A stretch of 64,000 nt of DNA. It comes from Thermoplasmata archaeon (GTDB lineage Archaea > Thermoplasmatota > SW-10-69-26 > JACQPN01 > JAJPHT01). Made by a program: the position numbers and the translations under genes. Shown one piece after another: positions 6,395-40,811 of this stretch (position 1 is its first letter; every line of letters begins with the position of its first letter). The notes beneath the pieces were generated by a model, which did not search any database, had not been told where the DNA came from, and saw only the letters and a list, made by a program, of their open reading frames with translations. The stretch lies in NCBI GenBank assembly GCA_034667685.1, contig JAXDQU010000106.1, forward strand, positions 64,001-128,000, written 5' to 3'.

Positions 6395-6433
6395 CGGCGC
6401 GCGGACTTGTTTCCTGCAACGTGTTCCGTGCTT

Positions 6434-6575
6434 CCGTGCAACGTGAACGTGGAACGAACGCCGTGAACGAGAACGTGAACGACCGTCCCGGCTAGATCTG
6501 GCCAGATCTAGCCGAGCCGCGGCGCCGTCCTGCCGTTCACGTTCACGGCCAACGTTCACGTCGCACGTTGCACGG
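6434..6575. repeat. long imperfect inverted repeat with a central perfect 26-bp palindrome
   Basis: Ends CCGTGCAACGTG / CACGTTGCACGG; GTGAAC repeats versus GTTCAC repeats; palindrome CGGCTAGATCTGGCCAGATCTAGCCG at 6489-6514. Confidence 0.85.
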
Positions 6576-6651
6576 GACGCGCCCAAGTCGCCTGCGCCTG
6601 GAGCAAGCCATCATGTGCTCGCCGCGGGTTGAGGACGGCGTGCGCCCCCGC

Positions 6652-7104: not shown

Positions 7105-7170
7105 ACGCCTGGCGCGCCGAAGCGGATTCGGGGGCAGGTTCATCTGATCCGGCGGCCAAGCACAGGCCAC

Positions 7171-7356
7171 ATGCCTGGCCGCAAGAACCCGTCGAGCCAC
7201 GACAACGAGGACCTGCGCGACTTCCGCCGCTTCCAGGCGCGCCTGCGCGGCGAAGGCGTCGTGGGCGACCAGGCGCCCGGCATGGACATCCTCGCCTCGC
7301 CGCGGCCGGACGCTGAAGTCCGGCGGTCGAAGCACCGCGAGAATTTTAGGCGATAG
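7171..7356 (+). CDS. small hypothetical protein (61 aa)
   Basis: ATG-start ORF with host-like codon use in an otherwise empty gap. Confidence 0.45.
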   Translation: MPGRKNPSSHDNEDLRDFRRFQARLRGEGVVGDQAPGMDILASPRPDAEVRRSKHRENFRR

Positions 7357-7422
7357 GGGGTTCGGGGGCGCAGCCCCAACGTCTGGACCTCGTCTCAACC
7401 TGGGGTTGAGATTCCGTTCGCG

Positions 7423-8193
7423 CTACGTGAAGCCCGCGCGACTCTCGATGACCACACTTTGGATGACCGTCTCAGGCACGAATCGCGCGTCCATGTCCGA
7501 CGCAGCCGGTCCGGTGAGGTCCCGGACGTAGAATCCGTCGGGCGTCTGAGCCACGAAGAAGAACGTCTGGTTGTCCAGGTCGGACGGGGCCGTCGTGTGG
7601 AGCGTGACTACCTTGTAGCTTGAGCGATGGGCAAGCGCGTCGTCGGCGGCGTTCCTGCCAAGCTCGGAGGCGCCGAACGTGACGAAAGCGACGACGAGGA
7701 ACACGCCGAGCGCGAGCATCCCAAGCGAGGACGCAGTCTCCGGGTCCTTCCGCTGCCACCTGCGGACGAGAAGAACGCCCACCACGCAAGCCACAATGAG
7801 CAGGAGCACCAGGCCGATGCCCCAATCCTGCGCGATGGGGCGCCCCGCAAGGGTCAGCGTGGTCACGGCGTGTGGCGTGAACGAGCTGAGCAGGAAGATG
7901 AACGCGACGATGATCGTCAACACAGCGATCTCGGCAGACGTTGCTTCACGAGGCAACCGTCGGAACTGGACGAAGAAGCGGCGGACCAGGATCGCGGCGC
8001 CGCCGAGGACCACCAACCACATCGACATGACGAAGCCTTGGATCACGAGGGTCTGCGGCGCACGGACGATGACGTTCTCGGGCACGCGCATTCGGACGTC
8101 GTAGGACGCGAACCAGAGCGTGCCCATGAACAGCCAAGCGCCCGTGACGAGGGCGACGAGGAATGCGCCATCGAGGGGGCGAGGCAACTTCAT
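7423..8193 (-). CDS. multi-pass membrane hypothetical protein
   Basis: About 5 hydrophobic segments plus a C-terminal soluble beta region; slightly lower GC. Confidence 0.7.
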   Translation of the reverse strand: MKLPRPLDGAFLVALVTGAWLFMGTLWFASYDVRMRVPENVIVRAPQTLVIQGFVMSMWLVVLGGAAILVRRFFVQFRRLPREATSAEIAVLTIIVAFIFLLSSFTPHAVTTLTLAGRPIAQDWGIGLVLLLIVACVVGVLLVRRWQRKDPETASSLGMLALGVFLVVAFVTFGASELGRNAADDALAHRSSYKVVTLHTTAPSDLDNQTFFFVAQTPDGFYVRDLTGPAASDMDARFVPETVIQSVVIESRAGFT

Positions 8194-8251
8194 GCCCGCC
8201 CAAGCTCCGCCGGCAGGCAAGAACTGCGCGGAACGCGTCGGCTGTTACGCG

Positions 8252-19484: not shown

Positions 19485-19546
19485 GGGGGCGCGTAGGCCC
19501 TCCGCCTTTTAAATGTCGCTTGCGGCCTGGCGGGCGTCCGACAGCT

Positions 19547-21994
19547 TTAGTTCGAGGAGGGCCGAGCGCGTTTCGGCGCGACGTCCTGCGGCTGATTCTC
19601 AGCCTCCCCAAACCGCCGCAGGGCGCTCGTGCCTGTTCTCGCGTTCTCCTCCGCCTCGCGGATCCACGCGCGGCCTTCGTCGTCGTCCAGGCGCGAGAGG
19701 GCGCGGGCCGCCAGTGGGGAAGGGCCGTCTTCCCGCAGGGCGAGCCCTTCGTCGAGGATGCGCGCGCGGAGCGCCTCGGCGCCGGCGAGGTCGAGCGCGT
19801 CGTGGAGCACCTCCTTCCAGGCCTCCTCGAGCATCGGGTGGTCGGGGCGCTCGCGCTCGACGAGGTCCAGGAGTTGCTCCTCGCGCCGCTGGCGCGCGAC
19901 GCGCCGCATGGGACCGTGCTTCTCGACGAGGAAGCTGCGCACGGCGACGTGGCGGAAGCGGCGCGCCAGGAGCGGAGAGCCGGCGAGCGCGCGGCGCAGG
20001 TCCTCCTCGATGGGCAGCGCGAGATGCCTGGCGAGGCTGCGCGCGGTGGGATGCCACGAGCGCGGGCCGAGGATCGCGAAGCCCAGGTCGCCCGCGCGCG
20101 GCGTGCCGCCCAGGCGGTGCGCGAGCGCGCGGGCGAGCGGCTCGTGCGCGCGCCGGCCGGCGACGCCGTGCACCACGAGCGCGCGGCGGCCGTCGTGGTG
20201 AAGGAACGTCTCGGCCGGGACGCCGTCGAGGAAAGCCGGTAGGGAAGCCCGCCAACGCAAGAACGCATTCCAAGCCTCGGCTGTATCGGTACTGACGTAA
20301 CCCGGTGAGCCGAATAGCATCTGGCGCGTGGCGTCGGCCACGAGCGGCGTCATGCCGAGCCCCTCGCCGCTCCACTCCGGGACCGTGGCCTCCTTCCCGC
20401 GCGCGGGCGCCACGTGTAGCGCGCGCCCCACGCGGGCGAGGTACGTCCAGTTGCGCCCGCCGAGGCGGAAGACGTCGCCCTCGTCGAGGAACGCGGCGAA
20501 GTCAGCCTCGATCTCGCCCACGAACCGCTCGCCTTCGAGCACGCGGACCCGCGCGTCGTCGGGGATCGTCCCCGCCTGCACGTGGTACGTCATGCGCGCG
20601 TTGCCGCGGCGCGCGAAGGTGGCGCCCTCGCGCCGCACGTAGGGCTCGCTCGCGAGCGCCCGGTCGTGGGATGCCGCGTCGAGCGCGCGGTAGGGCCACG
20701 CGCGGCGCACGAGCGCGCGCTCGGCCTCGACGTCGCGCGGGCCCGCGAGCGCGGCGCCCACGGCGTCCTGCGCGAGCACGTCGAGCGGCGTGGGCGGGAT
20801 GCGCAGGGGCTCCAGCGCGCGCTGGGCGACGAGCCGCTGGAGCGCGAACGCCTCCGCGAGGTCGGCCGGGTCCTCCACGAGGAGCGTGCCCTCGGGGCGC
20901 TCGCCCACGGCGTGGCGGCTGCGGCCGAGGCGCTGCACCGCGCGGGCGCACGAGCGCGGGCTTCCGAGCAGCACGACGTGGTCCACGGACTTGATATCGA
21001 GGCCGAGCTCCAGGCTGCTGCTCGCGACGACGCAGCGCAGCTCGCCCCGCGCGAGGCGCGCCTCCACGCGTTGCCGCTCCTCGCGGCTCATGCTGCCGTG
21101 GTGCGTCTCGACCTGCCGGGGCTCGTCCTCCTGGCCCAATGCCATCGCGATCTCCTCGGCGCGGGCGCGCGTGTTGGTGAAGACGATGGTGGTCGCGTGC
21201 GCGGCGACGATCGCGCGGAGCTTCGCCAGCAGCGCGTCCCTGGTCTCGCCGTCCCGCGCGCGCACCGGGTCCGGGTGGGCCAGCGCGACGTGCAGGAGCG
21301 GCGCCTGCGCGGCCGGGACGTGGACGATCCGGCAGGGCCGGCCGCCCGTGAGGAACGCGGCCGCCTCCTCCAGCGGGGTGACGGTGGCGGAGAGGCCGAT
21401 GCGCACCGGCGGCGCGGGCGTCATGGCCTCCAGGCGCTCCAGCGAGAGGGCGAGCTGCGCGCCGCGCTTCTTGGGCGCGAGGTCGTGCACCTCGTCCACG
21501 AGGACCCAGCGCACGCCCGCGAGCAGGTCGCGCCAGCGCGGCGAGACCAGCAGCAGCGCGAGCGACTCCGGCGTCGTCACGAGGACGTGGGGCGGCGCGC
21601 GGAGCATGCGGGCGCGCTCGCGGGGCTCGGTGTCGCCGGTGCGGATCGCCACGCGGACCTCCGGCGCGGGGAGGCCGTGCGCGAGGGCGTGGGCGCGGAT
21701 GCCCGCGAGCGGCGCCTCCAGGTTGCGCGCCACGTCGTTGACGAGCGCTTTCAACGGAGAGACGTAGATCGCCTGCGGGCCCGCGGGGAGCGCGTCGCCC
21801 TGGCGTGATAGCTCCGAGAGGAGCCAGAGGAAGCCCGCGAGCGTCTTGCCGCTGCCGGTGGGGCTCGCGATGAGCAGGTGCTCGCCCGCCGCCAGCGCGG
21901 GGATGGCCTGCGCCTGCGCGGGGGTCGGCGTGCCGAACGTCGCGCGGAACCACGAGGCGACCGGCGCGTGCAGCCGCGCGAGCGGGTCCTCCAT
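19547..21994 (-). CDS. lhr: Lhr-family ATP-dependent helicase
   Basis: PTGSGKT, YVSPLKAL, RTGDT, TTPESL, DEVH, LSAT, HHGS, LELGLD, QRLGRS, GTIPD. Confidence 0.92.
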   Translation of the reverse strand: MEDPLARLHAPVASWFRATFGTPTPAQAQAIPALAAGEHLLIASPTGSGKTLAGFLWLLSELSRQGDALPAGPQAIYVSPLKALVNDVARNLEAPLAGIRAHALAHGLPAPEVRVAIRTGDTEPRERARMLRAPPHVLVTTPESLALLLVSPRWRDLLAGVRWVLVDEVHDLAPKKRGAQLALSLERLEAMTPAPPVRIGLSATVTPLEEAAAFLTGGRPCRIVHVPAAQAPLLHVALAHPDPVRARDGETRDALLAKLRAIVAAHATTIVFTNTRARAEEIAMALGQEDEPRQVETHHGSMSREERQRVEARLARGELRCVVASSSLELGLDIKSVDHVVLLGSPRSCARAVQRLGRSRHAVGERPEGTLLVEDPADLAEAFALQRLVAQRALEPLRIPPTPLDVLAQDAVGAALAGPRDVEAERALVRRAWPYRALDAASHDRALASEPYVRREGATFARRGNARMTYHVQAGTIPDDARVRVLEGERFVGEIEADFAAFLDEGDVFRLGGRNWTYLARVGRALHVAPARGKEATVPEWSGEGLGMTPLVADATRQMLFGSPGYVSTDTAEAWNAFLRWRASLPAFLDGVPAETFLHHDGRRALVVHGVAGRRAHEPLARALAHRLGGTPRAGDLGFAILGPRSWHPTARSLARHLALPIEEDLRRALAGSPLLARRFRHVAVRSFLVEKHGPMRRVARQRREEQLLDLVERERPDHPMLEEAWKEVLHDALDLAGAEALRARILDEGLALREDGPSPLAARALSRLDDDEGRAWIREAEENARTGTSALRRFGEAENQPQDVAPKRARPSSN

Positions 21995-25000: not shown

Positions 25001-25540
25001 GCGCACCTCCACGCTCGTGGCGTTGAGCGCGAGCCCGGCGACCTCGGTGGGGCCCGCGGGAAGCCCCGCGCCGTCGGGGGGCGCCGCGATGCGCGCGGTG
25101 GGGGGCGCGTCCGGCGCGGCGCGGACGAGGGCGCGCGCGGGCAGGGAGAACGAGTCGCCGTCCCAGGCACGGACCTCGAGAAGATGGTCGCCCGCGTCGA
25201 GGTCGAGCGGCGCGAGGAAGGGGACCTCGGGCGCGCCGCGGACGACGTCGGGCAGGCTCTCCCAGCGGCCGCCATCGACGCGCAGCTCGACGTCGTGCAC
25301 CGTCTGGCCCGGAGCGGCGCGCGCGTCCCCCGCGAGCGTCACGTGGAGCGCCACGCCCTCGCCGTCCGCGGGCGCGTCGAGGCGGAGCGTGGGCGGCGCC
25401 GGAAGCGCATTGGCCGCGAGCGGATCCACGAGGAACGCCGCGAGGCGCGAGCCCTGGCCGATCACCAGCGGGATCGACGCGGCGAGGAGGACGCCCAGGA
25501 CGAGGAGCGCAATCCACCCCGGCCGCTTCAGAGGAGGCAC
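22019..25540 (-). CDS. large surface protein with multiple PKD/Ig-like domains and a C-terminal sorting-like tail
   Basis: Repeated W.FGDG...H.Y...G.Y.V.LTV.D PKD motifs; tail APMP-hydrophobic-RRR. Confidence 0.88.
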   Translation of the reverse strand: MPPLKRPGWIALLVLGVLLAASIPLVIGQGSRLAAFLVDPLAANALPAPPTLRLDAPADGEGVALHVTLAGDARAAPGQTVHDVELRVDGGRWESLPDVVRGAPEVPFLAPLDLDAGDHLLEVRAWDGDSFSLPARALVRAAPDAPPTARIAAPPDGAGLPAGPTEVAGLALNATSVEVRVGDRTIPATLVGSAWRASVDLPAGLTRLVAIAHRDDATSLPALSDVAAGATPPPTLAIQAPQPGDAFGSAGDPSCPGPCILARGVVSPSTARVLVSLDDAPPVSAPAHGGAWTWQVQVDGLLSGTHVVRATPVDGAGQQGAPRESAFAVRTPRSAGIAGDEAPRPTGTPLSFSLAPADPDAHWTLDGVDVARGATAQVALASPGGHALRVLAHDDHGRAATLDASLVALNRAPIAALHVDAGLAVADTSFRADASDADGRVVRYAWQFGDGATASGASPSVAHRYAQEGLYRANLTVYDDRGAASPVASALVAIANAPPVARLRLAPAAPTLLDEVSFEDDSFDPEGQLVARHWDFGDGAASADASPTHRFVARGPHVVSLTVQDAPGATATATQLVDVQDVAPTPAFTWAPLAPRAGEPVGFLDLSRKPDGDIVNWSWSFGAWGRDVAHAFPAPGAYDVTLTITDDWGLSANLTRQILVGDAAPQVRAILAAPADPRALEPVSFRAVGNDAMGGIASLAWDFGDGTNATGLEPTHAYARAGDYVVSLVARNAAGATAEANTTLRIANVPPQANLTAPTGVSGWPLTLVADASRDPDGRLARYQFDADGDGLPDCDGAATRCTFVYPAPGVYAAKLTVLDDEGATATAQLAIQVDPAPPSLAPPTIAIGKPLPSDPLRGSVALLGHAEGPRNLTRVEVQLRSGTRTYALGPSPWMPAQGLANWRLLLDSTAFPDGDYRLVARVVDEAGAEGLASVPITIANGAQDQALVLTVANAPLDPVGADYDLQGSAYHPQNVTAVRWRLDAGPWQDVVGQPIAFTVPLRGMTPGLHVALVDAYHGIDAKKEARVEIQVARPPPALVVDEPPAPIAYGLVHAAGRLADNGTVEWRLDAGTWTPLNASGGEWRLDATTRDLPAGHHDVALRAVGPEGAASEARGWSVRIVRPLGDSRFSGWGTDGTPPPASPHDAPMPVLAPLAALALAALGTRGDLRRRL

Positions 25541-25971
25541 GCCCCGTCGCCGCAGCCCGAGGAGAGGTCGGTGATCGTGAACGCCGCGGGCTCCTGGCCG
25601 CAGTCGACCTGATGGCCCGCGAGGCGGACCGTGATATCAAAACGCGCGCCCGCGATCGGGTCGACGCTCAGCGTCCACGCCCCCTCGTCGAGGATCGCGC
25701 CCTGGCCCGGGAGCGGAAGCGGGGAGGAGATCGTGCGCTCGCCGTGGGTGGCGCGCATCGCGAAGAGCGCCGGGCCCGCCTCGGTGGCATCGACGCAGAC
25801 CACGACGCCCGCGGGGACCTCGACGCGCCACGACGCGGCGTCGAGCGGGGTGGGGTCGGCCACGAGACCCCGGACGTGGCGCGTGGCGACCGAGGCGATC
25901 TCGCCGCCCGCGAGCGGAACGAGGAGCGCCGCGGCGACCAGGATGGGGACAAGCCTCGCGCTGGCTCGCAT
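25528..25971 (-). CDS. secreted hypothetical protein
   Basis: Signal peptide, 4 Cys, overlaps the start of the PKD gene. Confidence 0.6.
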   Translation of the reverse strand: MRASARLVPILVAAALLVPLAGGEIASVATRHVRGLVADPTPLDAASWRVEVPAGVVVCVDATEAGPALFAMRATHGERTISSPLPLPGQGAILDEGAWTLSVDPIAGARFDITVRLAGHQVDCGQEPAAFTITDLSSGCGDGACLL

Positions 25972-26266
25972 GCACGCCTCCACCCTGCCAGGCAGCCCGG
26001 ACGGGGATACGGTTTCGCGTGTCACGCCGAGGTGCACGCAGCTTGTACGTGACTTCGGTGACTCAGACCGGCAGAACCGGACTCGCTTAACTCAGGCTCA
26101 GGAATGCCCATTTCTTTTTCCTTTTCTCTGGAACCGCCCGAAGAATGCGCTTCAGGCACCGGCGATCTCGGCCCGGCATTCCTGGCTGGTCGGGGCGAGG
26201 GCCTCTGGGCCGCCGGAGGGGCGAAACGAGGCGTATTCTAGTGCGAAATCCAAACCGGCCAGATTT

Positions 26267-26308
26267 AACTAGGGAAGCAACTAGACGACCAACTAGGTGA
26301 GTCACTAG
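26267..26308 (+). promoter_or_regulatory. four (A/C)ACTAG direct repeats at exact 12-bp spacing abutting the start codon
   Basis: AACTAG at 26267, 26279 and 26291; CACTAG at 26303; ATG at 26309. Confidence 0.75.
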
Positions 26309-26626
26309 ATGGGGCTCGAAACGCGCGTCTGGCGCACCGGATTCGAATCCAACCTCCTCACGACCGTGCCGAAGGCCGTCCGCGTCCAGTTGAGCCTCGG
26401 GCCGGCGGACCGGCTGCGCTGGAACGTCGAGGGGGGTTACGCGCGGGTGACCAAGGCCGGGGCGGAGGAGGGGGAGGCCACCACCTACCGGCTCTACAAG
26501 CAGACGCGCGGGAACAGCCTCTACACCTCCCTCCCGGCCGCGGTCGCGGAGCAGCTCCGCATGAACGAGCGCTCCCGCGTCGAATGGGAGCTCCAGGGGA
26601 CGGCCGCCCATGTCCGCCGCGCTTGA
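26309..26626 (+). CDS. tandem AbrB/MazE/SpoVT-type DNA-binding protein
   Basis: Two repeats: SNLLTTVPKAVRVQLSLGPADRLRW and NSLYTSLPAAVAEQLRMNERSRVEW. Confidence 0.85.
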   Translation: MGLETRVWRTGFESNLLTTVPKAVRVQLSLGPADRLRWNVEGGYARVTKAGAEEGEATTYRLYKQTRGNSLYTSLPAAVAEQLRMNERSRVEWELQGTAAHVRRA

Positions 26627-27473
26627 CCGGCTCGGCAACGCCCCCGCCGTCCTCCTGGTCGAGGCGCCGCCCGACGCGAAGCGCTTCCGCGCGCTCACGC
26701 GCATCAGCGACGACAAGCTGCGCAGCATCCCGCAGCAGGCGCGCGAATGCGCCGCCTACGTCGAGGGCCTCGGCGCGCCCGCCGCGCTCGACGGCGTCTA
26801 CAACGTCGGCGAGCACAGCGGCTTCAGCATGACCCAGAGCCCCATCTACCAGCAGCTTCTCGCCGACGCGCGCAACGGCCGGTTCCACGCGCTGGTCGTC
26901 CGCGACAGCAGCCGCCTGGGGCGCGACTACTGGGAGAAGATGGGCACGCTGCGCGACCTGCGCGCCGCCAAGATCGAGTTCCACGTCATCGAGGACGGCG
27001 GCGCGTTCGACTTCGAGGACCGCCTCCACAAGGTCAAGAGCTGGGCGAGCACGTGGGCCGACGAGGAGAAGAAGCGCGAGGAGATCCGCAAGTCGCTGCG
27101 CGCCACGCAAGCCTTGCGTGACATGGGCCTTCCCACCGGCCGCCCGCCCTACGGCTACCGCAGCGCGAAGGACGCCAGGCTGGGCCGGCGCGTCTGGCGG
27201 GCGGAGCCGCGCGAGGCCGACGCCGTGCGCGCCCTCTACGCCGCGCTCCTGGCCGAGCCCGCCGCCAACCTCAGCGCGCTGGGCCGCGAGCACGACCTCA
27301 CGCCCAGCCAGGTCGACCGGATCCTCGGCAACCCGTGCTACCAGGGCGGTTTCCTCTGGGAGGGCGCATTCCGCGCCGCGGCGCCGGAGGTCGTGCCGGC
27401 GCTGGTGAGCCCGGAAGAGTTCGCGCGCGTCCAGGCCATCCGGGCCCAGCGTCGCCGCGCGCCGCGCGAGTGA
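26610..27473 (+). CDS. serine recombinase (resolvase catalytic + recombinase domain, no Zn ribbon)
   Basis: RIS catalytic Ser motif, SG, DSSRLGR, GRPPYGY, ILGNPCYQG, PALVS.EEF..VQ. Confidence 0.9.
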   Translation: MSAALDRLGNAPAVLLVEAPPDAKRFRALTRISDDKLRSIPQQARECAAYVEGLGAPAALDGVYNVGEHSGFSMTQSPIYQQLLADARNGRFHALVVRDSSRLGRDYWEKMGTLRDLRAAKIEFHVIEDGGAFDFEDRLHKVKSWASTWADEEKKREEIRKSLRATQALRDMGLPTGRPPYGYRSAKDARLGRRVWRAEPREADAVRALYAALLAEPAANLSALGREHDLTPSQVDRILGNPCYQGGFLWEGAFRAAAPEVVPALVSPEEFARVQAIRAQRRRAPRE

Positions 27474-27485
27474 ACGGCCGCGCCC

Positions 27486-28493
27486 TCACGGCGAGGGCTT
27501 CTGCTGCTGGAAGCCCAGGAGGACGTTCATGAGGTCCGGCGAGCGGATGCGTTGCGTCATCTCGCGGCGCTCCAGGATCTTCTGCACGTTCTCGAAGAGC
27601 GTCTCGTCGATGACGGGCGGGATCACGTGCGGCTCGGCGCGGACGAACTCGCCCTTCCAGTTGAATCCGCCCGTGTAAGCGCGGTTGCGGAGGATCTTGC
27701 GCAGCAATTGCCGCGAGACGCCGAAGCGGCGGCTCAGGCTGCTGAACTCCTCGTAGGGCTCCTCGACGAGCGAGGCGAAGATGGCGCGCACCTTGGCGGC
27801 CTCGGGCGTCTGGCGCCACACCTTCCGCCGGGAGACGGGGTCGATGGCGGGCTCGTAGCCGTACGGGAGCGAGGTGGTGGGGAAGCGCGCGTCGCGGATC
27901 GCCTGGGTGGCGCGCATGCTCTTGCGGATCTCCTCGAGCTTCTTGCCCTCGTCGCCCCACGTGTTGGCGAACGAGCGCACCTTGCTCATGCTGTCCTCGT
28001 AGTCGAAGAAGCCGCCGTCCTCCAGGATGTGCAGCTCGACCTTGGCGCGGCGCAGGTCGCGGATGGTGCCCATCTTCTCCCAGTAGTCGCGGCCCAGGCG
28101 CGCGCCGTCGCGGGCCACGAGCGCGTCGAACTGCCCGGCCTCCGCGTCGTGGAGGACCTGGCTCATGATGGGGCTCTGGTCGATCTTGAAGCCGCTGTGC
28201 TCGCCGAGGCTGTAGACGCGGTCGATGATGCCGCCGATCTCCTCGGCGTCGGCGCGGCGCGCGCCCGCGACGGCGTCGCCCCAGGCGTAGCGGACGCACT
28301 CCTTGACCTGCTGGGGGATCGAGAGCAGCTTGTCGTCGCTGATGCGCACGAGGACGCGGAAGACCTTCGAGCCGCGGGCCTTGAGCGCGGCGGTCTCTTC
28401 GGGACGGAGGAGGTCGATCACGCGCGGCTCACGGTCGTCGGCGTCCTTCAGGCGCCGGTCGACCTCCGCAAGAAACGCGTCCAGGGTGTGCAT
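27486..28493 (-). CDS. serine recombinase, convergent paralog
   Basis: RISDDKL.SIPQQ, GEHSGF, DGARLGRDYWEKMGT, PYGY, ILRNRAYTG, PPVIDE.LF..VQ. Confidence 0.9.
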   Translation of the reverse strand: MHTLDAFLAEVDRRLKDADDREPRVIDLLRPEETAALKARGSKVFRVLVRISDDKLLSIPQQVKECVRYAWGDAVAGARRADAEEIGGIIDRVYSLGEHSGFKIDQSPIMSQVLHDAEAGQFDALVARDGARLGRDYWEKMGTIRDLRRAKVELHILEDGGFFDYEDSMSKVRSFANTWGDEGKKLEEIRKSMRATQAIRDARFPTTSLPYGYEPAIDPVSRRKVWRQTPEAAKVRAIFASLVEEPYEEFSSLSRRFGVSRQLLRKILRNRAYTGGFNWKGEFVRAEPHVIPPVIDETLFENVQKILERREMTQRIRSPDLMNVLLGFQQQKPSP

Positions 28494-28541
28494 CCGAGGC
28501 TTAACACCCGGAGCGCGATGAAGAAGGTGCCGATGTTGAAA

Positions 28542-29060
28542 TCAGGCGACGCTCTCGGGCCGGCCCGCGAAGAGCGCGGCGAGCCCCCAGCCCAGCGGGA
28601 CGAGGACGTTGCCGAACATGAACGCGAAGACGCCTTCCTGCGCGTCGCCCACGAGCCAGAGGATGCCGGTGACGCAGGCGATGGCGAGGCCGGCGCGCGC
28701 CACGCTCAGCGTCGCCGCGCCGCGCCGGGCGCCGTAGGCCGCGATCGCGAGGCCGAGCGCGGAGCCGAGGGTGGCGAGGGTCACGGGCCCGACGTTGGTG
28801 AGGTGGCCCTGCGCGGCGTAGGCGACGATGTAGCCGACGTGCGCGGCGGCGGCGACGGCGAGGCCGACCGGGCTGGCGGCGTTCTGGCCCTCGGCGTCGG
28901 TGTAGAACCCGAACGCGGCGATGGCGAGGCCGATGCCCGCGACGAGGACCATCAACGCGGGAAAGAGGCCGTGGTCCACGCCCAGGAAGGCGATCGCCCA
29001 TTGGGCTTCGCCCACGCCGGCCAGCGCCAGCGCGATGGCCGTGAGAAGGCCCGTCCGCAT
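28542..29060 (-). CDS. small multi-pass membrane protein
   Basis: About 6 hydrophobic helices. Confidence 0.7.
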   Translation of the reverse strand: MRTGLLTAIALALAGVGEAQWAIAFLGVDHGLFPALMVLVAGIGLAIAAFGFYTDAEGQNAASPVGLAVAAAAHVGYIVAYAAQGHLTNVGPVTLATLGSALGLAIAAYGARRGAATLSVARAGLAIACVTGILWLVGDAQEGVFAFMFGNVLVPLGWGLAALFAGRPESVA

Positions 29061-29100
29061 GGGGGATATCCTTCTCCAGCCCCGCTTAAGCCAACCGGAA

Positions 29101-30420
29101 TTAGCCGAAGGCCGCGGCGGGGCTCTTCATCGCCTCGCGCAGCAGGCACGTGGCGTAGCTTCCCTTCAGCAGGAAGAAGCGGAGCAGGAGGCGCTCGCCG
29201 GCGTCGTCGGCGCCCGCGTCCCACGAGACGGGGCCCAGGGGAGCCAGAAGCTCGCGGCGGGTGCCGAAGCTGGCGACCTCCGGGAGGTGCGGGATGCGGA
29301 AGTCGCGCTGCCGATAGCCCGCCTCGGCGAGGACGTCGCGCTCGATCTCGCCCATGCGCCCTTCCGCCAGGCGCGAGCCGGTGCCCGCGATGGCGCCGGT
29401 GACGAGCGCCGCGCCCTTCGCGCACAGGCGCGCCACGCGCGCGTGGTTGAGCGGCGTGACGGCGTGCAGGCGCTCCTTGTCGGGACGCCCCTCCGCGTCG
29501 AGCCCCACGACGAGATCGCCGGGGCGCGGCTCGTTGAGGCCGATGCCTTCGCCCATGCGGCGGCTCACGATGCGGTTGAACAGGAGGCTCTGCGCGGCGT
29601 AGACGAACATGGTGCGCAGGTTGCTGGGCAGCGACAGGAGCGCGCCCTCGAAGTCGCGCGGGTGGCGCGCGAGGTGCTCCAGCATCGTGCGCTCGAAGCC
29701 CGCGTAGCGCGGGAAGCGCGCGAAGCTGGACTCGGCGTCGCGCGTGGCGTCGTAGTGCGCGCGCGCCTCGCGCAGCTCGTCGGACTCGGCCGGCTGCGGG
29801 TTGCCCACGTAGAGGCGCACGGCCTCCTCCAGGTCGCCCCGGACGATCTGCTCGCCCACGAGGTGCGTCACGGGGCGCACGACGCCGAAGCGCTGCACGC
29901 CGAAGTAGTTGGGGAAGCCCCCCTCGGCCTCGATGCGCGCGAGGATCGCGTGCAGGCTCTCCGCGGCCTCCTTGAGGGGGACGTCCGTCTCGCGCAGCGC
30001 GATGACGAAGCGGTTGCCCACCAGCTCGCCGATCTTGGGCGCGCGGTCCACGCGGCGCGTCTCCAGCACCTCGACGTCCTTGAGGTCCAGCGCGCGCACG
30101 CGCTCCTCGGGGGCGCGGAGGCTGACGTACTGCGTCGTGACGGCGCGCTTGTCCTTCGTTCCGGCGAAGAAGATCGTCTCGCGCGGCACGTTCAGGACGC
30201 GCGCCAGCTCGCCCATGAGGCGGTTGGTCTCCCAGTTGCGCACGCGCAGCGCGGCCACCGTGTACTTGCCCTCCGCCACGGGCGCGGGGAAGGCGAGCGG
30301 GACCTCCTCGACGACGAAGTCCTCGGGGCGGCTCTTCAGCCGGCCGCCGGTGCCGGGCAACGCCGCGGTGAGGTAGCGTTCGAGCCCGAGCGCCTTCTCA
30401 AAATCGCCGGGCTCGATCAT
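29101..30420 (-). CDS. truD: tRNA pseudouridine(13) synthase
   Basis: EDFVVEE, AGTKDKRAVTTQ, GNRF, PNYFGVQRFG, KGSYAT.LLRE. Confidence 0.95.
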   Translation of the reverse strand: MIEPGDFEKALGLERYLTAALPGTGGRLKSRPEDFVVEEVPLAFPAPVAEGKYTVAALRVRNWETNRLMGELARVLNVPRETIFFAGTKDKRAVTTQYVSLRAPEERVRALDLKDVEVLETRRVDRAPKIGELVGNRFVIALRETDVPLKEAAESLHAILARIEAEGGFPNYFGVQRFGVVRPVTHLVGEQIVRGDLEEAVRLYVGNPQPAESDELREARAHYDATRDAESSFARFPRYAGFERTMLEHLARHPRDFEGALLSLPSNLRTMFVYAAQSLLFNRIVSRRMGEGIGLNEPRPGDLVVGLDAEGRPDKERLHAVTPLNHARVARLCAKGAALVTGAIAGTGSRLAEGRMGEIERDVLAEAGYRQRDFRIPHLPEVASFGTRRELLAPLGPVSWDAGADDAGERLLLRFFLLKGSYATCLLREAMKSPAAAFG

Positions 30421-34524: not shown

Positions 34525-34736
34525 CGCCGGAGCCGAGCGCGCCCCGCGCGCTCGGGCGCAGGCGCCCGCCCGGCGCGGTGTCGCAGGCCCGCGCCGCACG
34601 GCGCGGAGCCGGAGACCGCCCGCGCAGCGGGCGATTCGCGCCGGGCGGAGTTGAGAACTAGAGTTGTCCTCTGTCGCTGCTTGGGTGCACGCAAAAGGCT
34701 TTCAATGCCCGGGGCTACGCGGCGGCGGGGAGCGCC

Positions 34737-37700
34737 GTGCGCCAGCCAGCCGTTTCGAGGATCGCCGTCATCTGGATCTCCGCGCTCACGCTGACGCCCG
34801 TCGTGGGCGGCGCTTGGGCCGATGCCCAGCTTCTCCCCGCGCCGACGGGCTTCTCCGCCGTCGCGCTTTCCCCGAGCGCCATCGCCCTTTCGTGGGACGC
34901 CGTGGACGGCGCGCACTCGTACCACGTCGAGCGTTTCGCGGGCGAGTCGTGGACGCCCGTCGCGGACGTCAACGCGACGAACGTCACCGACGCGGGCCTT
35001 GAGGCCAACACGTCCTACACGTACCACGTCTGCGCGTGGGACGGCTCCGCCTGCGGCGTCGTCTCGGAGAGCGCGAGCGCGACCACGCTCCCCACTCCGC
35101 CGCCCGCCGCGCCCGCCTCCCTCGTCGCCACGCGCGGCTCGGGCAGCGCCTACGCCGACGTCCACCTGGCATGGAGCGCCGTCGAGGGCGCGACCGGCTA
35201 CACGCTCTCGCGCGCCGACGCGGCGAACGAGACCACCCTCGTCTACGCGGGCAACGCCACGGGCTTCGACGACCTCGCGCTCGCCGGCGGCGCGTACGTC
35301 TGGAGCGTCGCCGCGACGTCGGACGCCGGGACCAGCGCGCCCACGGCGAGCAGCTCCCTCGTGGTCCCCGCGGGTCCGCCCGTCACGGACCTGCGCGCGA
35401 CGGGGCTCACGAGCACCTCGCTCTCGCTCGTCTGGGACGCGCCGCAGGGCGCCGCCGGCTTCCTCGTCAACGGCACGCCCGTCGAGGCCGCGCAGCTTGA
35501 CCTCGCGGACCTCGTGGCGTGCGGCTCGTACTCGTTCGACGTCGTCGCGCGGTACGAGGGCGGCGTGAGCGACCCCGTCACGCTCCGCGTCGCGCTGCCA
35601 GGCTGCATGCTCTGGTACGACGCCGCCTCGCCCGCCAACTCGGCCACGCAGCTCGCCGACCTGAGTGCCGCGGGCGACGACGGCGCGCTCCTGAACATGG
35701 CCGCGGGCCCCGCCAACGGCACGCTCGCCTTCGACGGCGTCGACGACCTCGTCGCGGGCGGCGCGCTCTTCCACGCGCCCGACTCCTTCACCGAGGCCGT
35801 CCGCTTCCGCACCACGAGCGCCTCCGGCATCCTCGTCTCGTTCCAGGACTCGCGCGACCTCGCCCCGTCGCGCTTCGACCGGCGCCTCTTCCTCGACGGC
35901 CAGGGGCGCGTCGGGTTCGGCGTCTGGGCGGACGGCGCGCCCGATGACCCGCGCGTGATCCGCAGCGACGCGCGCTTCGACGACGGCCAGTGGCACACCG
36001 CGGTCGCCACGATCGGCGCCACCGGCTCCGACGCGGGCGCGATGCTCTACGTCGACGGCACGCTCGTCAACCAGACCCCGAGCAACGACAAGCAGGTCTA
36101 CGACGGCTACTGGGTCGTGGGCGGCAGCCGCAACACGTACTGGGAGAGCGTCCTCCCGCAGCCCATGTTCCGCGGCGAGATCGCGATGGTGAAGGTCTAC
36201 GACGGCATCGTCCCGCCCGCGCCCGCCGCGCTGGGCCCCGCCACGCACCTCGCCGTCTCGCGCGGCCCCGCGCTGGGCGAGGCGAGCCTGTCCTGGTGGC
36301 CCGCGCCCGGCGCCGAGCGCTACGCGGTCAACCTCACCGGCCCCTCCTTCCCCAACGGCACCGAGGTCGACGCGGGCCCCGCGCGCACGGCCGACTTCCC
36401 GGACCTCCTCGCGGGCGACTACGCGTTCACCGTGCTATCGTTCCAGGGCGACGCCTCGGCCGCGAGCGAGCCCGTCACCGGCCAGCCCGCCACCGCGCCC
36501 GGCGCGCCCGCGAGCGTCACCGCCACGCCGGTCTCGCCTGGCGTGGTCCGCGTCGCGTGGAGCGCGCCCGACGACACGGGCGGCGTGCCCGTCCAGCATT
36601 ACGAGGTCTCCGCGGACGGCGAGCCGCGCACCACCACGCTGGGCACCACGTTCGGCGTCAACCTCGCGGTGCCCGAGGACGGCGCCGTCCACGTCTTCGG
36701 CGTCCGCGCCAACACCAGCGCCGCGGCGGGCCCGGAAGCGCTCGCCAACGCCACCGCCGCCTGGGCGCCCAGCCCCGTCGCCTCGCTCTGGAGCGAGCCG
36801 GGCGCCGAGGTCGGCGAGGTCAACCTCACGTGGCTGGCGCCCGCCACGCACGCCGCGCCCCTCGCGGGCTATCACGTCTGGCGCGACGGCGCCATCGTCG
36901 CCACCACCAACGCCACGCGCTTCGTCGACGCCAACCGCACGCCCGGCGCGCGTTCCTCCTACAACGTCACCGCCGCGAGCGACGCGGGCGAGAGCGCCGC
37001 GGGCCTCACCGTGACCGAGGTCGCGCGCCCCGCGCTCGTGGGCTGCCCGACCAGCACGAGCGTCTCGGTCTACGCCTGCCAGCAGGTGCCCTTCGGGCTC
37101 TACGCGCTGCCGGCCAACGCCTCCTCGCCCACGAGCATGCGGTGCGACGACTGCGTCAGCTCGCCGCTCGCGCTCCCCTTCGCGTTCCCGATGTTCGGGC
37201 GTCTCTACACGCAGGTCAACGTCACGACCAACGGCCTGCTCCTTTTCGGGAGCACCGACTACGGATGGAGCTACTCGCCCGTCGGCATCCCCACCGATGG
37301 CTCGCCCGCCGGCATGATCGCCGGCTACTGGAGCGACCTCGACGGCCGCGCCATCGGCAACGTCCGCTACGCGACGCTCGGCGAGGCGCCCCACCGCCTT
37401 TTCGTAGTCTCGTGGGAGCGCATGGGCGAGTACAGCTGTTACTACCTTCCCTACTGCGGTCCCGGCAACGCCACGTTCCAGGTCGCGCTCCACGAGGACA
37501 GCGGCGCCGTCGAATACCAGATCGCCTTCGCGGCGATGGACCACCACTACGCCACCGTCGGCCTCGAGGATGAGACGGGAACCTACGGCCTGACGATCTT
37601 CCACGGCACCGCGCCTCTCGCGCGCCAGGGCTTCCTCCTGATCCCGCCCAATGCGCCGCCCGTCGGAGCGCCCACCGGCGTCTCCGTCCACGCGACCGCG

Positions 37701-40700
37701 CCGCTCACCCTTGATGTCAACTGGACGCCGCCCGCGGACGCGACCTCGAGCGCCGTCTTCGGCTACCGCGTCTACCGCGACGGGACGCTGATCGCCACGC
37801 CTGATGGCACGAGCTACGCCGACGAGCTCTCCGCGCCCGGCAACCACACCTACCAGGTCGCGGCGCTCAACGCGCGCGGTGAAGGTCCGAGCAGCGCGCC
37901 CGTCAACGGCACCGCCTACCAGGACGTCGCGCCGCCCACGCTGACGCTCGACCCCGAGGCGCCCGACGGATTGGGCGGCGTCTACAACCACACGCCCGCC
38001 GCCACCGCGATCCCAGGCGGCGCCCCGCCCAACCCCTCCGAGTCGCCCTGCGATTGCGTCGTCCGCGAGGTCGCCTCCGGGCCCAGCGTGGACGTCCTCG
38101 ACTCGTTCGACGGCGCCGCGCACGCCTCTCCCTACACGGTGACGGGCGAGGGCGAGCACACGCTCACGGCGCGCACGTTGGACGCGAACGGGAACGTCGT
38201 CGCGCAATCCGAGCCGCGGACCCTCACGCTCGACACGACGGCGCCCACCGCCACCGTCTCGACCGGCGCCGAGGGAAGCGCGCTCTCCGTCACGTTCGCG
38301 TTCAGCGAGCCCATGTCGCCCGACGCCACGCTCGCCGCGCTCGCGGCGCCCGCCGGCTGGACCGCCGCGCTCGCCAAGGACGCGCGGAGCCTCGTCGTCT
38401 CGGGCACCGGCGCGCCAGGCGCCGCGTACGACGTCACGCTCTCCTCCGCCGCCACGGACGCGCACGGCACTCCCCTCGCCGCGCCCGCGACGGGCCACGT
38501 CGAGGGCCCCGCGCCGCCGCCTCCGCCCCCGCCGCCCGCTCCGCCGGCGCCGCGCGTGCCCGGCGCGCCCGGCGCGCCCAGCGTCTCGTTCCACGACGGC
38601 CGCGTCGACGTCGCGTGGTCCGCCCCCTCCGACGCGGGCACCTCGCCCGTCTTCCGCTACACGCTGCTGCGCAACGGCCAGGCGATCTCCACGCAGCCCG
38701 GCACGAGCTACCAGGACGCGGCCGTGACGCCCGGCGCGACGTACGCCTACAGCGTCGCCGCCACCAACACGCAGGGCACCGGCCCCGCGAGCGGCGCCAC
38801 GAGCGTCACGATCCCCGGCGCCGCGCCCACGAGCGTCCTCGCGCTCAGCGGCGCGCCCCAGGATGGCTGGTACGGCGCGAGCCCGACCGCGAGCTTCAGC
38901 GCCACGCCCGCCGACGCGCAGGTGAGCTATCAATTGGACGGCGGCCCCGCCGCGACGTACGCCTCGCCCTTCGCCATCCCTGCCGGCCGCCACACGCTGA
39001 GCTGGCACGCCACGCGCCCCGGCTCGCCCGACGAGGCCGCGCGCTCGCAGACGATCGACGTGGACCCTGACGCGCCAATCATCGCTGGCGCGGGGCTCTC
39101 GGGCTCCAGCGTGCACGCCCGCGTCACCGACGCGCTCTCCGGCGTCGCCAGCGTCGCGGCGCTGCTGCCCGACGGCACGAGCGTCCCCCTCGCCGCGAGC
39201 GGCGACGACTACGCCGGCACGCTCTCGCCCACCGCGCCCGGCGTCCATGCGATCTCGATCATTGCGCGCGACCACGCGGGCCACGAGTCGCGCGCCTCGG
39301 CCGGCACGCTCACGATCGCCGCGCCGCCCGCCGCGGACAACGCGACGACCAACGGCACCGCCACCAACGCGACGACGTCCGGCCCCACGCCCAGCTCGCC
39401 CACGCCGCCCACGGGCGGCGGCAGCGGCACCAGCGGCGGGAGCAGCGGCGGCAGCGGTTCCGGCGGCGCGCCCCTGGAGCAGGCCAGCGTCACCCCCTCG
39501 TCGAGCACGCCGGCCCCCGGCGCCCCCTCGCCCACGCCGGCGCTCACCGTCACGCAGGACCCCAACGAGACGGCCCCGCTGGACGCCGGCGCGCGTGGTC
39601 AGGTGCGCCTGCACGTGAGCAACGTGGACGACCCCTCGCTCGTGCGCCTCGTCGTCGTCGACGAGAACGGCCACGAGACGCCGCTGGGCTCGGGCACCGA
39701 CGCGACGTGGGACACCACGCGCAGCGACGACGGGTACTACACCGTCGAGGCGCGCGAGGGCAACGTCACGCTCGCCAGCACGCGCGTCCTCGTGCGCAAC
39801 GCCTTCCTCAGCGGCGCCGAAGCCGCGGGCGGCGTCGCGCTGGGCGTGGGCGCGGCCGCACTCACCAGCGTCGCGAGCAACGCGCTCACCTCGAGCGCCC
39901 TGGGCGCGGCCTCCGCGACGGCCAGCAGCGCCACGAGCGCGGCCTCCGGCGCCGCCACCAGCACCGGCGGAAGCCAAGGCTTCAGCCTCTCGCAGTACCT
40001 CAAGGACCTCTTCACCGACGCGGGCAGCGACGCGCTGCGCGACAAGACGAAGAACGTCGCCTCCATCGAGCGCCGCCGCCGCATCGCCAGCAGCATCGCG
40101 CTGGTCGCCACGGTCTCGCTCATCGCCGTGTTCTACAGCGTCGCCGAATCGAGCGCCTACACGTGGCGCGCGTTCCTCGGCGTGCTCCCCCTCGTGGGCG
40201 CGGCCGCCGTCATCCTCGCGCTCCAGAAGTACGGCAGCGAGTCGCTCATCGCCCACCTCTCAGGCGCGCGCGTCCGCTTCCGCATCTGGATCGCCGGCGT
40301 CGCCTCGCTCCTCGTCTCCACGCTCGCGTTCCACCAGCCCTTCGGCTACCCCGGCTACGTCGACAACGGCGTCGAGACCACCGAAGCCGAGAAGCGCCTC
40401 GCGGGCCACCGCGCCCTCGCCATCCTGGGCATCACGAGCGCGTGGAGCCTCGTCTTCGTCCTCGCCGGCCACCTCGGCCTCTACGGCTTCGGCAGCATCG
40501 GCGTCGCGATGGCCGTAAGCGCCCTCGCCACCGCCGCGATGCCCTTCGGCCCCCTCCCCGGCAAGGAGGTCTGGCGCTGGAGCAAGCTCGCCTCCCTCGC
40601 GGCGGCCGTGGGCGCCCTCGCGCTCTACGTCACCTACGAGATGGCGCTCCTCCCCGAGTGGGCGCTCATCACGGTTGGCCTCGTGGGCGCCACCGGCTAC

Positions 40701-40811
40701 GCCGCGACCGCCGTGAGCTTCCGTCGCCGCGAGCCCCCCGCCCGCAGCGTGCCCGTCCAGGACATGGACGCGGAGCGCCGAACGAAACGCGAGGCGGAAC
40801 GCGAGGCGTGA
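34737..40811 (+). CDS. 2024-aa surface protein: FN3 repeats, LamG-like domain, nidogen-like domain, Ig-like domains, C-terminal degenerate M50-like membrane domain
   Basis: FN3 (L.W.AP..Y.V.R.G...Y.V.A), LamG (FDGVDD, DGQWHT, LYVDG), LPFAFPMFG...TNG...IAGYWSDLD...TFQV, multi-TM tail ending MPFGPLPGKEVWRWSK. Confidence 0.88.
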   Translation: MRQPAVSRIAVIWISALTLTPVVGGAWADAQLLPAPTGFSAVALSPSAIALSWDAVDGAHSYHVERFAGESWTPVADVNATNVTDAGLEANTSYTYHVCAWDGSACGVVSESASATTLPTPPPAAPASLVATRGSGSAYADVHLAWSAVEGATGYTLSRADAANETTLVYAGNATGFDDLALAGGAYVWSVAATSDAGTSAPTASSSLVVPAGPPVTDLRATGLTSTSLSLVWDAPQGAAGFLVNGTPVEAAQLDLADLVACGSYSFDVVARYEGGVSDPVTLRVALPGCMLWYDAASPANSATQLADLSAAGDDGALLNMAAGPANGTLAFDGVDDLVAGGALFHAPDSFTEAVRFRTTSASGILVSFQDSRDLAPSRFDRRLFLDGQGRVGFGVWADGAPDDPRVIRSDARFDDGQWHTAVATIGATGSDAGAMLYVDGTLVNQTPSNDKQVYDGYWVVGGSRNTYWESVLPQPMFRGEIAMVKVYDGIVPPAPAALGPATHLAVSRGPALGEASLSWWPAPGAERYAVNLTGPSFPNGTEVDAGPARTADFPDLLAGDYAFTVLSFQGDASAASEPVTGQPATAPGAPASVTATPVSPGVVRVAWSAPDDTGGVPVQHYEVSADGEPRTTTLGTTFGVNLAVPEDGAVHVFGVRANTSAAAGPEALANATAAWAPSPVASLWSEPGAEVGEVNLTWLAPATHAAPLAGYHVWRDGAIVATTNATRFVDANRTPGARSSYNVTAASDAGESAAGLTVTEVARPALVGCPTSTSVSVYACQQVPFGLYALPANASSPTSMRCDDCVSSPLALPFAFPMFGRLYTQVNVTTNGLLLFGSTDYGWSYSPVGIPTDGSPAGMIAGYWSDLDGRAIGNVRYATLGEAPHRLFVVSWERMGEYSCYYLPYCGPGNATFQVALHEDSGAVEYQIAFAAMDHHYATVGLEDETGTYGLTIFHGTAPLARQGFLLIPPNAPPVGAPTGVSVHATAPLTLDVNWTPPADATSSAVFGYRVYRDGTLIATPDGTSYADELSAPGNHTYQVAALNARGEGPSSAPVNGTAYQDVAPPTLTLDPEAPDGLGGVYNHTPAATAIPGGAPPNPSESPCDCVVREVASGPSVDVLDSFDGAAHASPYTVTGEGEHTLTARTLDANGNVVAQSEPRTLTLDTTAPTATVSTGAEGSALSVTFAFSEPMSPDATLAALAAPAGWTAALAKDARSLVVSGTGAPGAAYDVTLSSAATDAHGTPLAAPATGHVEGPAPPPPPPPPAPPAPRVPGAPGAPSVSFHDGRVDVAWSAPSDAGTSPVFRYTLLRNGQAISTQPGTSYQDAAVTPGATYAYSVAATNTQGTGPASGATSVTIPGAAPTSVLALSGAPQDGWYGASPTASFSATPADAQVSYQLDGGPAATYASPFAIPAGRHTLSWHATRPGSPDEAARSQTIDVDPDAPIIAGAGLSGSSVHARVTDALSGVASVAALLPDGTSVPLAASGDDYAGTLSPTAPGVHAISIIARDHAGHESRASAGTLTIAAPPAADNATTNGTATNATTSGPTPSSPTPPTGGGSGTSGGSSGGSGSGGAPLEQASVTPSSSTPAPGAPSPTPALTVTQDPNETAPLDAGARGQVRLHVSNVDDPSLVRLVVVDENGHETPLGSGTDATWDTTRSDDGYYTVEAREGNVTLASTRVLVRNAFLSGAEAAGGVALGVGAAALTSVASNALTSSALGAASATASSATSAASGAATSTGGSQGFSLSQYLKDLFTDAGSDALRDKTKNVASIERRRRIASSIALVATVSLIAVFYSVAESSAYTWRAFLGVLPLVGAAAVILALQKYGSESLIAHLSGARVRFRIWIAGVASLLVSTLAFHQPFGYPGYVDNGVETTEAEKRLAGHRALAILGITSAWSLVFVLAGHLGLYGFGSIGVAMAVSALATAAMPFGPLPGKEVWRWSKLASLAAAVGALALYVTYEMALLPEWALITVGLVGATGYAATAVSFRRREPPARSVPVQDMDAERRTKREAEREA

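Follow-up and report, generated by a model that had tools for sequence, protein, structure and literature searches.

How a chromosome comes to keep two serine recombinases with no visible cargo, and what such enzymes might act upon, is the question raised by a locus in a soil archaeon of the Thermoplasmatota. The window (the whole stretch of DNA that was analysed) comprises 64,000 nucleotides of contig JAXDQU010000106.1, positions 64,001 to 128,000, from a Thermoplasmata archaeon; the contig, 148 kb long, belongs to a metagenome-assembled genome of 3.48 Mb, which is 99% complete and has a GC content of ~72%. Within it, a small gene for an AbrB-like DNA-binding protein is followed by two paralogous serine recombinase genes, here termed recA and recB, which face each other tail to tail. 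A preliminary description, made from the letters of the DNA, saw in these genes a domesticated, host-resident module. Comparison with related genomes upholds this view: the module is neither a mobile element nor the wreck of one, and it is very probably functional, fixed in the chromosome and vertically inherited. As to what it does, the explanation that is on balance favoured as a whole is that of a host module which is autoregulated and acts at its own locus.

Inheritance of the module

Exactly two recombinase copies are present in the source genome, and they are adjacent. When the genomes of 41 relatives were searched, strong recombinase matches occurred only in seven of the same family; the four remaining matches stand at 27-31% identity. 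At the level of the family, the module is found in seven of nine genomes and in three of five genera, and at the level of the class in 7 of 21 genomes, with none among the 12 outside the family. All five genomes of the genus carry recA and recB side by side. In two genomes of other genera, G007 and G006, AbrB is accompanied by a single recombinase copy, which is nearer to recB (54% and 49% identity, respectively) than to recA (50% and 43%).

Wherever the flanking sequence suffices, gene order is conserved: a PKD protein and a small secreted protein are followed by AbrB and recombinase and then by TruD, RpoL and Csl4. In G007 the order is AbrB, one recombinase, TruD. Between G007 and G000, the source genome, the recombinases are 53% identical, compared with 57% for TruD and 64% for RpoL; as the divergence of the module tracks that of host genes, vertical descent is indicated. 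The codon use, described earlier as host-like, is indeed so: GC content at third codon positions (GC3) is 0.92, 0.95 and 0.94 for AbrB, recA and recB, respectively, against 0.93-0.97 in the neighbours. No transposase genes, viral genes or attachment (att) repeats were seen around the module, again as first described, and its neighbours are housekeeping genes. The closest tRNA genes lie at distances of 11 kb and 13 kb, and the long inverted repeats of the region are the recA and recB paralogues facing each other, nothing more.

The open reading frames (ORFs) from nine loci contain no frameshifts and no in-frame stops, the stops that were flagged sitting at gene ends, and recB orthologues within the genus share 82-92% identity. 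Pairwise ratios of nonsynonymous to synonymous substitution (dN/dS, NG86) across seven genus loci are 0.08-0.34 for recB, 0.11-0.26 for AbrB, 0.28-0.57 for recA and 0.26-0.48 for TruD; it detracts from the argument that extreme GC3 depresses dS, so that the ratios come out too high in absolute terms and have meaning only when genes are compared with one another. By that comparison, purifying selection acts on the module at least as strongly as on the neighbouring TruD. Shared synteny in three genera, host-like GC3 and purifying selection together speak for a host-resident, vertically inherited module.

A word-indexed search returned 76 homologues of the recombinases (identity at least 47%) and 97 of AbrB (59-93%), and every one belongs to the same lineage; database homologues carry the label Thermoplasmatota archaeon. 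In a profile search of 1.84 billion cluster representatives, four matches had E <= 1e-30 and the next stood at ~1e-20, a drop which marks the recombinase family as narrow and isolated in sequence. A search for a further single-copy locus (query P0034) gave an unrelated bacterial match only. One contig of G003, JAJPHT010000029.1 (loci L039 and L018), is labelled Proteobacteria bacterium. The label looks wrong, as the contig carries the archaeal RpoL-Csl4-TruD synteny and orthologues 84-92% identical to genes of the window.

The two recombinases

The short ORFs of 287 and 335 aa, with stops 12 bp apart, are confirmed, and Pfam bears out the earlier assignment of Resolvase and Recombinase domains without a zinc ribbon. 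Resolvase (PF00239) scores 43.3 bits in recA and 35.6 bits in recB (cut-off 23.3), Recombinase (PF07508) scores 25.6 and 28.0 bits (cut-off 21.1), and Zn_ribbon_recom (PF13408) has no Pfam match in either protein; at most 40 residues remain after the recombinase domain. The paralogues are 51% identical over 279 columns (BLASTP, E 6e-95), and the motifs RISDDKL.SIPQQ, GEHSGF, RLGRDYWEKMGT and EEIRKS.RATQA are all found in both. Identity amounts to 63% (73/116) in the catalytic region and 70% (23/33) in the E-helix (alphaE), compared with 41% (39/95) in the recombinase domain and 30% (6/20) in the C-terminal region. Thus, the DNA-binding part has diverged more between the two, and the initial impression of colinear catalytic and E-helix regions beside diverged DNA-binding regions was accurate.

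In alignment A1, which holds 46 sequences (recA, recB and 44 of the 76 homologues), residues R50, S52, R128, D129, R132, G134 and R135 are invariant over both paralogues, so the RIS and RLGR catalytic motifs are kept in both enzymes, as had been claimed. The RLGR block lines up with TRLSR of the SPbeta integrase when the profile is compared with the PDB. The catalytic roles of the R-x-S motif, with its nucleophilic serine, and of the R-x-x-R arginine block are established in the literature. Judged by these residues, recA and recB are apparently catalytically intact DNA-rearranging enzymes.

An AlphaFold2 model of recB has a predicted local distance difference test (pLDDT) score of 87.7 and consists of a structured N-terminal extension (residues 1-41), the catalytic domain, the E-helix (residues 169-201) and the recombinase domain; it ends in two short helices, with neither a zinc ribbon nor a coiled coil. 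The top Foldseek matches of this model are the SPbeta, Bxb1 and phiC31 integrases (E 1.6e-10 to 2.7e-8), among them 4bqq, a fragment of phiC31 with the N-terminal and recombinase domains, and cryo-EM integrase structures. Matches to resolvases are weaker (E 1e-6 to 1e-4). When the recB profile is compared with PDB sequences, integrases are the sole matches and these are marginal (E 0.0014-0.004), and phmmer of recB against PDB sequences gave no match. Pfam found no C-terminal helix-turn-helix of the small-resolvase kind, the C-terminal region matching Recombinase PF07508 instead, and with the NCBIfam model for CcrB the score is 16.7 bits (cut-off 900), which leaves the proteins outside the CcrA/CcrB equivalogs.

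By the modelled fold, recA and recB are truncated large serine recombinases. Of the features of an integrase, they have the PF07508 domain after the E-helix and lack the zinc ribbon and coiled coil, a mobile element and att sites. The short architecture is not unique, because Bacteria also have clusters of Resolvase plus Recombinase proteins of 277-293 aa.

The C-terminus of recB (window 27486-27590) carries a strongly conserved tail, R-I-R-S-P-D-L-M-N-V-I/L-L-G-F, which recA does not have. In the model it forms a helix of its own (residues 319-330), predicted less confidently than the core domains, and it may be a protein-interaction peptide.

Duplication of the recombinase gene and inversion of recB

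A maximum-likelihood tree of 31 rows (16 from the loci and 15 of the 76 homologues) places the single-copy recombinases as outgroup and separates a recA clade (support 100/100, stem 0.78) from a recB clade. The ancestral state, as seen in G007 and G006, is AbrB with one recombinase. recA is the derived, faster-evolving duplicate, and recB is the paralogue of ancestral type.

The tail-to-tail layout given in the preliminary description does not belong to the system by design. The layout is convergent, recA(+) recB(-), in G000, G003 (same contig as L043) and L044, one subclade only; most species of the genus are tandem, recA(+) recB(+), in five or six lineages, namely G001, G002, G004 (L046 being seemingly the same sequence), L047 and L049. 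Loci L045, L050 and L051 are too short for their orientation to be called. A gene for a 172-aa membrane protein stands beside TruD only in G000, G003/L043 and L044. About 50 bp upstream of recB are kept in all seven loci in either orientation; because this stretch follows the orientation of the gene, a unit of ~1.07 kb, promoter and gene, would have been inverted a single time, in the ancestor from which the G000 subclade descends. The tail-to-tail order is therefore derived, and the flip seems to have been a single event that became fixed.

Both spacers around recB vary. Between recA and recB there are 12 bp in the source genome, 86 bp in G003, ~70, 168, 265-295 and 610 bp in four lineages and ~2.2 kb in L049. 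From recB to TruD the distance varies between 41 bp and 3.3 kb among species, and the interval contains a glyoxalase-like gene (L050), an operon for a family B DNA polymerase (PolB; G001 and G002) or the membrane-protein gene.

The 2.2-kb insertion of L049 (378-2330) encodes a secreted PETase/chlorophyllase-like hydrolase of 610 aa, in which the N-terminal ~40 residues are duplicated within the protein. In G001 and G002 a three-gene operon lies directly 3' of recB and encodes a protein of 228-248 aa without a family, an 80-aa protein and a PolB of ~850 aa (L021 of G001, 6194-9413; L020 of G002, reverse-complemented, 2376-3977; G000 contig C21, L058 7272-10752). This operon is on other contigs in G000 and G003, so that close relatives carry it at differing places. 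In G001 the recA-recB spacer measures 610 bp (L021 4617-5227) and, immediately before the recB promoter, contains several CCACGTGG-type palindromes; G002, G004 and L047 have a far shorter spacer.

The AbrB-like protein and the cis elements

The first gene of the module encodes a protein of two AbrB-type halves. MazE_antitoxin (PF04014) matches residues 68-96 with 28.3 bits (cut-off 24.7), and PrlF matches residues 18-55 below threshold with 22.4 bits (cut-off 32); the internal repeat is drawn from these Pfam matches and from secondary structure, the beta-alpha-beta elements being twice repeated in an AlphaFold2 model (pLDDT 72.5). The linker between the halves varies in length among homologues (alignment A2), and the alignment has no C-terminal tail past the two DNA-binding halves. 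A predicted complex of recB with the AbrB protein scored 0.00 against a mark of 0.32. recA is translationally coupled to AbrB, its start overlapping the end of the AbrB gene by 17 nt.

The AbrB promoter has a TATA-like box, TTTAAC, followed by four (A/C)ACTAG repeats with a 12-bp period. The ACTAG repeats begin at 26268, 26280, 26292 and 26304, the last adjoining the ATG, and a GGTGA Shine-Dalgarno-like motif precedes that codon. The array is kept in all six genus loci and partly in G007. CTAG is rare in the genome (768 sites in 3.48 Mb), and the array is its only cluster of at least three CTAG within 45 nt that is not a simple repeat. It is quite probably an operator which the tandem-AbrB protein would bind, thereby autoregulating AbrB-recA.

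The recB gene has an upstream stretch of its own, with a (C)GTTTC-type element, a box TCGGnGCCTTCTT(A/C)ATC resembling a transcription factor B recognition element (BRE) and TATA box, ~26 nt and the ATG; its consensus, (C)GTTTC..TCGGnGCCTTCTTAATC, ~26 nt, ATG, is that of all seven loci. This stretch is predicted to be the promoter of recB, and the mRNA is probably leaderless. The earlier proposal that one subunit is under AbrB control agrees with this arrangement, since recA alone belongs to the AbrB operon, recB being served by the conserved promoter predicted in front of it.

A further element is shared by the two promoters. GAAACGAGG stands ~35 nt upstream of the TATA-like box of AbrB and is invariant in five of six genus loci, L044 having GAAACAAGG; its reverse complement, CCTCGTTTC, stands ~20 nt upstream of the recB box in the tandem-type genomes. 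The recB-side element is degenerate in the three convergent-type loci and reads CCTGATTTC in the window. G007 carries the full palindrome: AACGAGG-N5/6-CCTCGTT occurs exactly twice in its genome, 430 bp apart, once upstream of the AbrB promoter and once between AbrB and the recombinase gene. The reversed pattern gave no matches, and neither did the palindrome in four other genomes. The G007 palindromes are specific to the module and may be crossover sites or operators.

The GAAACGAGG 9-mer also led to an unrelated structure on contig C110 of G000 (19505-19680), in which, past the end of a gene, ~100 nt are bracketed by a perfect inverted repeat with 25-nt arms (GAACCCGTTTCACGCCCTCGTTTCG and its complement); it may be a structured RNA or large hairpin.

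A model for the module

A history of the following kind would lead to the present locus. The recombinase gene would have been duplicated within the genus, recB keeping the ancestral sequence type and its own promoter, while recA would have been inserted between AbrB and recB, become coupled to AbrB and evolved faster, mostly in its DNA-binding part. Later, recB with its promoter would have flipped once and been fixed in the subclade of the window. The AbrB protein would bind the four ACTAG repeats, which span the promoter and the start codon of its own gene, and thereby autoregulate AbrB-recA. The recombinases would act on cis sites at their own locus, the GAAACGAGG/CCTCGTTTC elements by both promoters, in a resolvase-like reaction, either resolution or autoregulation as at the res site of a transposon or plasmid, with AbrB as an accessory or architectural factor; this part of the model, own-locus action with AbrB as accessory factor, is rather doubtful. 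After the duplication, recA and recB would cooperate on diverged half-sites. An obligate recA/recB heteromer is a tentative suggestion, prompted by the retention of both genes in all genomes of the genus, the E-helix being the best conserved region and the DNA-binding part the most diverged.

Several observations weigh against an autoregulated host module acting at its own locus. No recombination product or target site was observed in the sequence or in assembled contigs, and the contigs, in which rare forms are not visible, show the reference layout only. Two genomes of the family are without the module, G005 (72% complete) and G008 (87% complete). Foldseek of the AbrB model returned no matches at E <= 0.001, and with no fold match the assignment to the AbrB family comes from Pfam. 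The GAAACGAGG 9-mer occurs at chance frequency, with 14 genome matches against an estimated ~16 expected; only half-sites survive in the genus, with a degenerate copy on the recB side, and these may be ordinary transcription-factor sites. The spacers of the G007 palindromes are unequal (6 and 5 nt), which makes them unlike a simple pair of crossover sites.

G008, of the same family, bears on the origin of the module. It has the same flanks, TruD to Lhr, and between them a 2-kb block of 57-61% GC compared with 65-70% in the flanks (L071, contig C43, 3000-5100), in which an HNH-AP2 endonuclease-like gene is accompanied by an ORF that weakly resembles a tyrosine integrase. The block is an ordinary insertion remnant and shows what an ordinary insertion looks like in the slot that, in other genera, holds the PKD gene and the AbrB-recombinase module. 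This suggests an old integration site in the slot downstream of TruD, by way of which the AbrB-recombinase pair may originally have come in with an element, a point against the favoured reading. An element remnant in the empty site of a relative had been named in advance as an observation that would speak against domestication. Such a remnant exists, but it does not make the module an ordinary one: host composition, intact genes and conservation from genus to genus show that the present module is not a remnant.

Alternative explanations

A heteromeric resolvase of the XerCD kind, which would resolve chromosome dimers or multimers at a site beside its own genes and was the main reading of the preliminary description, is an unlikely role for the module, though the best placed of the alternatives. 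Plasmid multimer-resolution systems have a serine recombinase gene adjoining its site, a layout that the module would share; the candidate cis sites are confined to a single locus, the G007 palindrome occurring only there, and the module is fixed in place, carries no cargo, is strongly constrained by purifying selection and, throughout the genus, has both recombinases. However, a check for XerA found a full-length Xer-type tyrosine recombinase of 301 aa on contig C34 (E 2e-54 to 6e-61 against the XerA, XerC and XerD models, below their equivalog cut-offs), so that the genome does not lack Xer. The heteromer is not intrinsic to the system either, since the ancestral system has one recombinase. 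In addition, the module was not found in any of the 12 other genomes of the class, and GC skew along the 148-kb contig gives no origin or terminus signal.

The occurrence of recB and its promoter in both orientations among species raises the possibility of a live programmed inversion switch, in which the recB segment, or AbrB-recA between the inverted half-sites of tandem-type genomes, would flip reversibly in the population and thereby alter the set of expressed genes. The promoter-side breakpoint lies within ~10 bp of the conserved CGTTTC element, and the half-sites of the tandem type are inverted repeats bracketing the promoter, AbrB and recA. Orientation nevertheless follows phylogeny perfectly, 8-9 lineages requiring a single change; recB is not flanked by short inverted repeats, and selection by itself would hold breakpoints just outside a promoter-gene unit. 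Logan assembled contigs from four soil runs of four studies, out of six candidate runs, show the reference form alone: X2 record 13 spans both recB borders in that form, and X3 record 19, from a strain 97-98% identical in another study, spans the recA/recB junction. None of 15 of the 24 contig joints changes strand, and the joints were treated as noise because, in soil metagenomes this rich in GC, their sides agree over no more than 21-24 nt at 90% likeness. A reversible switch is accordingly improbable.

The variable spacers could also be read as the work of a host-encoded integrase or gene-capture platform for unlinked or transient DNA, inserting beside recB. Both are highly variable, and the host-type genes they hold differ between species. 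In a bolder form, AbrB and the twin recombinases would be a host-owned rearrangement platform, an archaeal serine-recombinase analogue of the integron or shufflon, with the flanks of recB as recombination sites that exchange hydrolase, glyoxalase, PolB operon and membrane protein, recB itself having flipped likewise. The spacers are, however, operon boundaries and tolerant of insertion anyway; the inserted genes are host-like in GC3, no shared repeat or att-like motif was seen, and no episome with a matching site is known. The capture platform is very unlikely, and its integron- or shufflon-like form hardly has a better chance.

Least probable of all is an immobile selfish or addiction pair, consisting of an AbrB/MazE-like antitoxin and a DNA-cleaving toxin, or a decaying element remnant: the layout does resemble a toxin-antitoxin system, with a small AbrB gene first, an overlapping second gene and operator repeats over the promoter, one source annotates AbrB homologues as MazE antitoxin, and an integrase remnant fills the slot in G008, but the ORFs are intact in nine loci, synteny extends across three genera with host-like GC3, PADLOC, Pfam and NCBIfam found no toxin or defence family in the module, the partner is a serine recombinase, the AbrB protein has nothing beyond its DNA-binding halves and the recB promoter is outside the AbrB operon.

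Genomic setting

The coordinates of the locus are collected below. The stop codons, TGA and TCA (reverse complement), face each other across the 12-bp spacer. The genes flanking the module encode, by Pfam, Lhr helicase, NMD3, DUF424, a PKD surface protein of 1173 aa, TruD, RpoL, Csl4, a methyltransferase and DnaJ, and there is also the small secreted protein. An Rfam scan of 25500-29500 gave a C/D-box match at chance level only (E 0.53), and sigma-70 and terminator scans were run and are uninformative for an archaeon. Elsewhere in the window, an ORF of 2049 aa with high GC3 follows DnaJ (34662-40811, plus strand).

Table 1. Features of the AbrB-recombinase locus (positions in the window)
Feature	Position	Strand	Basis or remark
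GAAACGAGG element	26223-26231	+	Genus alignment
AbrB-recA promoter and putative operator	26264-26308	+	Sequence, genus alignment
Gene for tandem AbrB/MazE-type DNA-binding protein, 105 aa	26309-26626	+	ORF list, Pfam
recA, serine recombinase, 287 aa	26610-27473	+	ORF list, Pfam
Spacer between both stop codons, 12 bp	27474-27485		Left breakpoint of the past inversion of recB
recB, serine recombinase, 335 aa	27486-28493	-	ORF list, Pfam
recB promoter region (predicted)	28494-28544	-	Predicted from sequence, conserved upstream stretch
Predicted membrane protein, 172 aa, no family	28542-29060	-	Neighbour between recB promoter and TruD, not a core part

Relation to known systems and significance

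The closest relatives by fold are the serine integrases (SPbeta SprA, Bxb1, phiC31, TP901-1 and A118), with which recA and recB share the catalytic domain, the long E-helix and PF07508. In serine integrases the coiled coil controls directionality. The module proteins have neither this nor the zinc ribbon and are ~290-335 aa long compared with 450-700; the module has no phage or element, no attP/attB pair and no known recombination directionality factor, and the sequence similarity is marginal. In layout, the likeness is rather to Tn3 and gamma-delta resolvase at res and to the plasmid recombinases Sin, beta and ParA, whose genes lie beside cis sites that overlap their own promoter, which are autoregulated and which need accessory sites or an architectural DNA-binding protein. 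Such an arrangement is what is proposed for the module, where binding to the sites is a prediction. Those enzymes have a small C-terminal helix-turn-helix and belong to mobile or extrachromosomal replicons, whereas the module enzymes have a recombinase domain.

Paired serine recombinases are known from SCCmec, where the paralogues CcrA and CcrB are encoded side by side, like recA and recB, and act together. The Ccr proteins are full-length large serine recombinases in a mobile cassette, in contrast to the module pair, which is a lineage-specific duplication at a host locus. For the regulator, a parallel is offered by MraZ, which has tandem AbrB-like domains, binds direct repeats in its own promoter and regulates a cell-division cluster. 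By description, MraZ and the AbrB protein share two AbrB-type halves in one chain and a direct-repeat array over their own promoter; the AbrB protein, however, sits with a recombinase.

The host-domesticated serine recombinases known to us are bacterial, each with an obvious invertible or excisable segment. Hin, Pin, SpoIVCA and XisF, the DNA invertases and developmental excisionases covered by one review, are host-recruited serine recombinases inherited with the chromosome (PMC8987985); each has an invertible or excisable segment beside its gene, and no archaeal enzyme is among them, nor one with an AbrB-type partner. Archaeal serine recombinases have been seen in transposons but, in the words of a review of archaeal recombinases, were 'never fully investigated' (PMC8371274), and according to a plasmid paper their usual place in archaea is on plasmids and integrated elements (PMC2926602). 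No paper on an AbrB-recombinase module or on the short Resolvase plus Recombinase architecture was found in the literature, supplementary files aside.

What sets this case apart is a lineage-specific recombinase family, isolated in sequence, which occupies one chromosomal slot across genera under strong constraint, together with a dedicated AbrB-type partner and a retained duplicate and with no visible substrate. A compact enzyme of 290-335 aa could interest genome engineers. Finding the target would show how a large-serine-recombinase core is controlled without the coiled-coil directionality device, and it would show the use that the cell makes of a serine recombinase without cargo.

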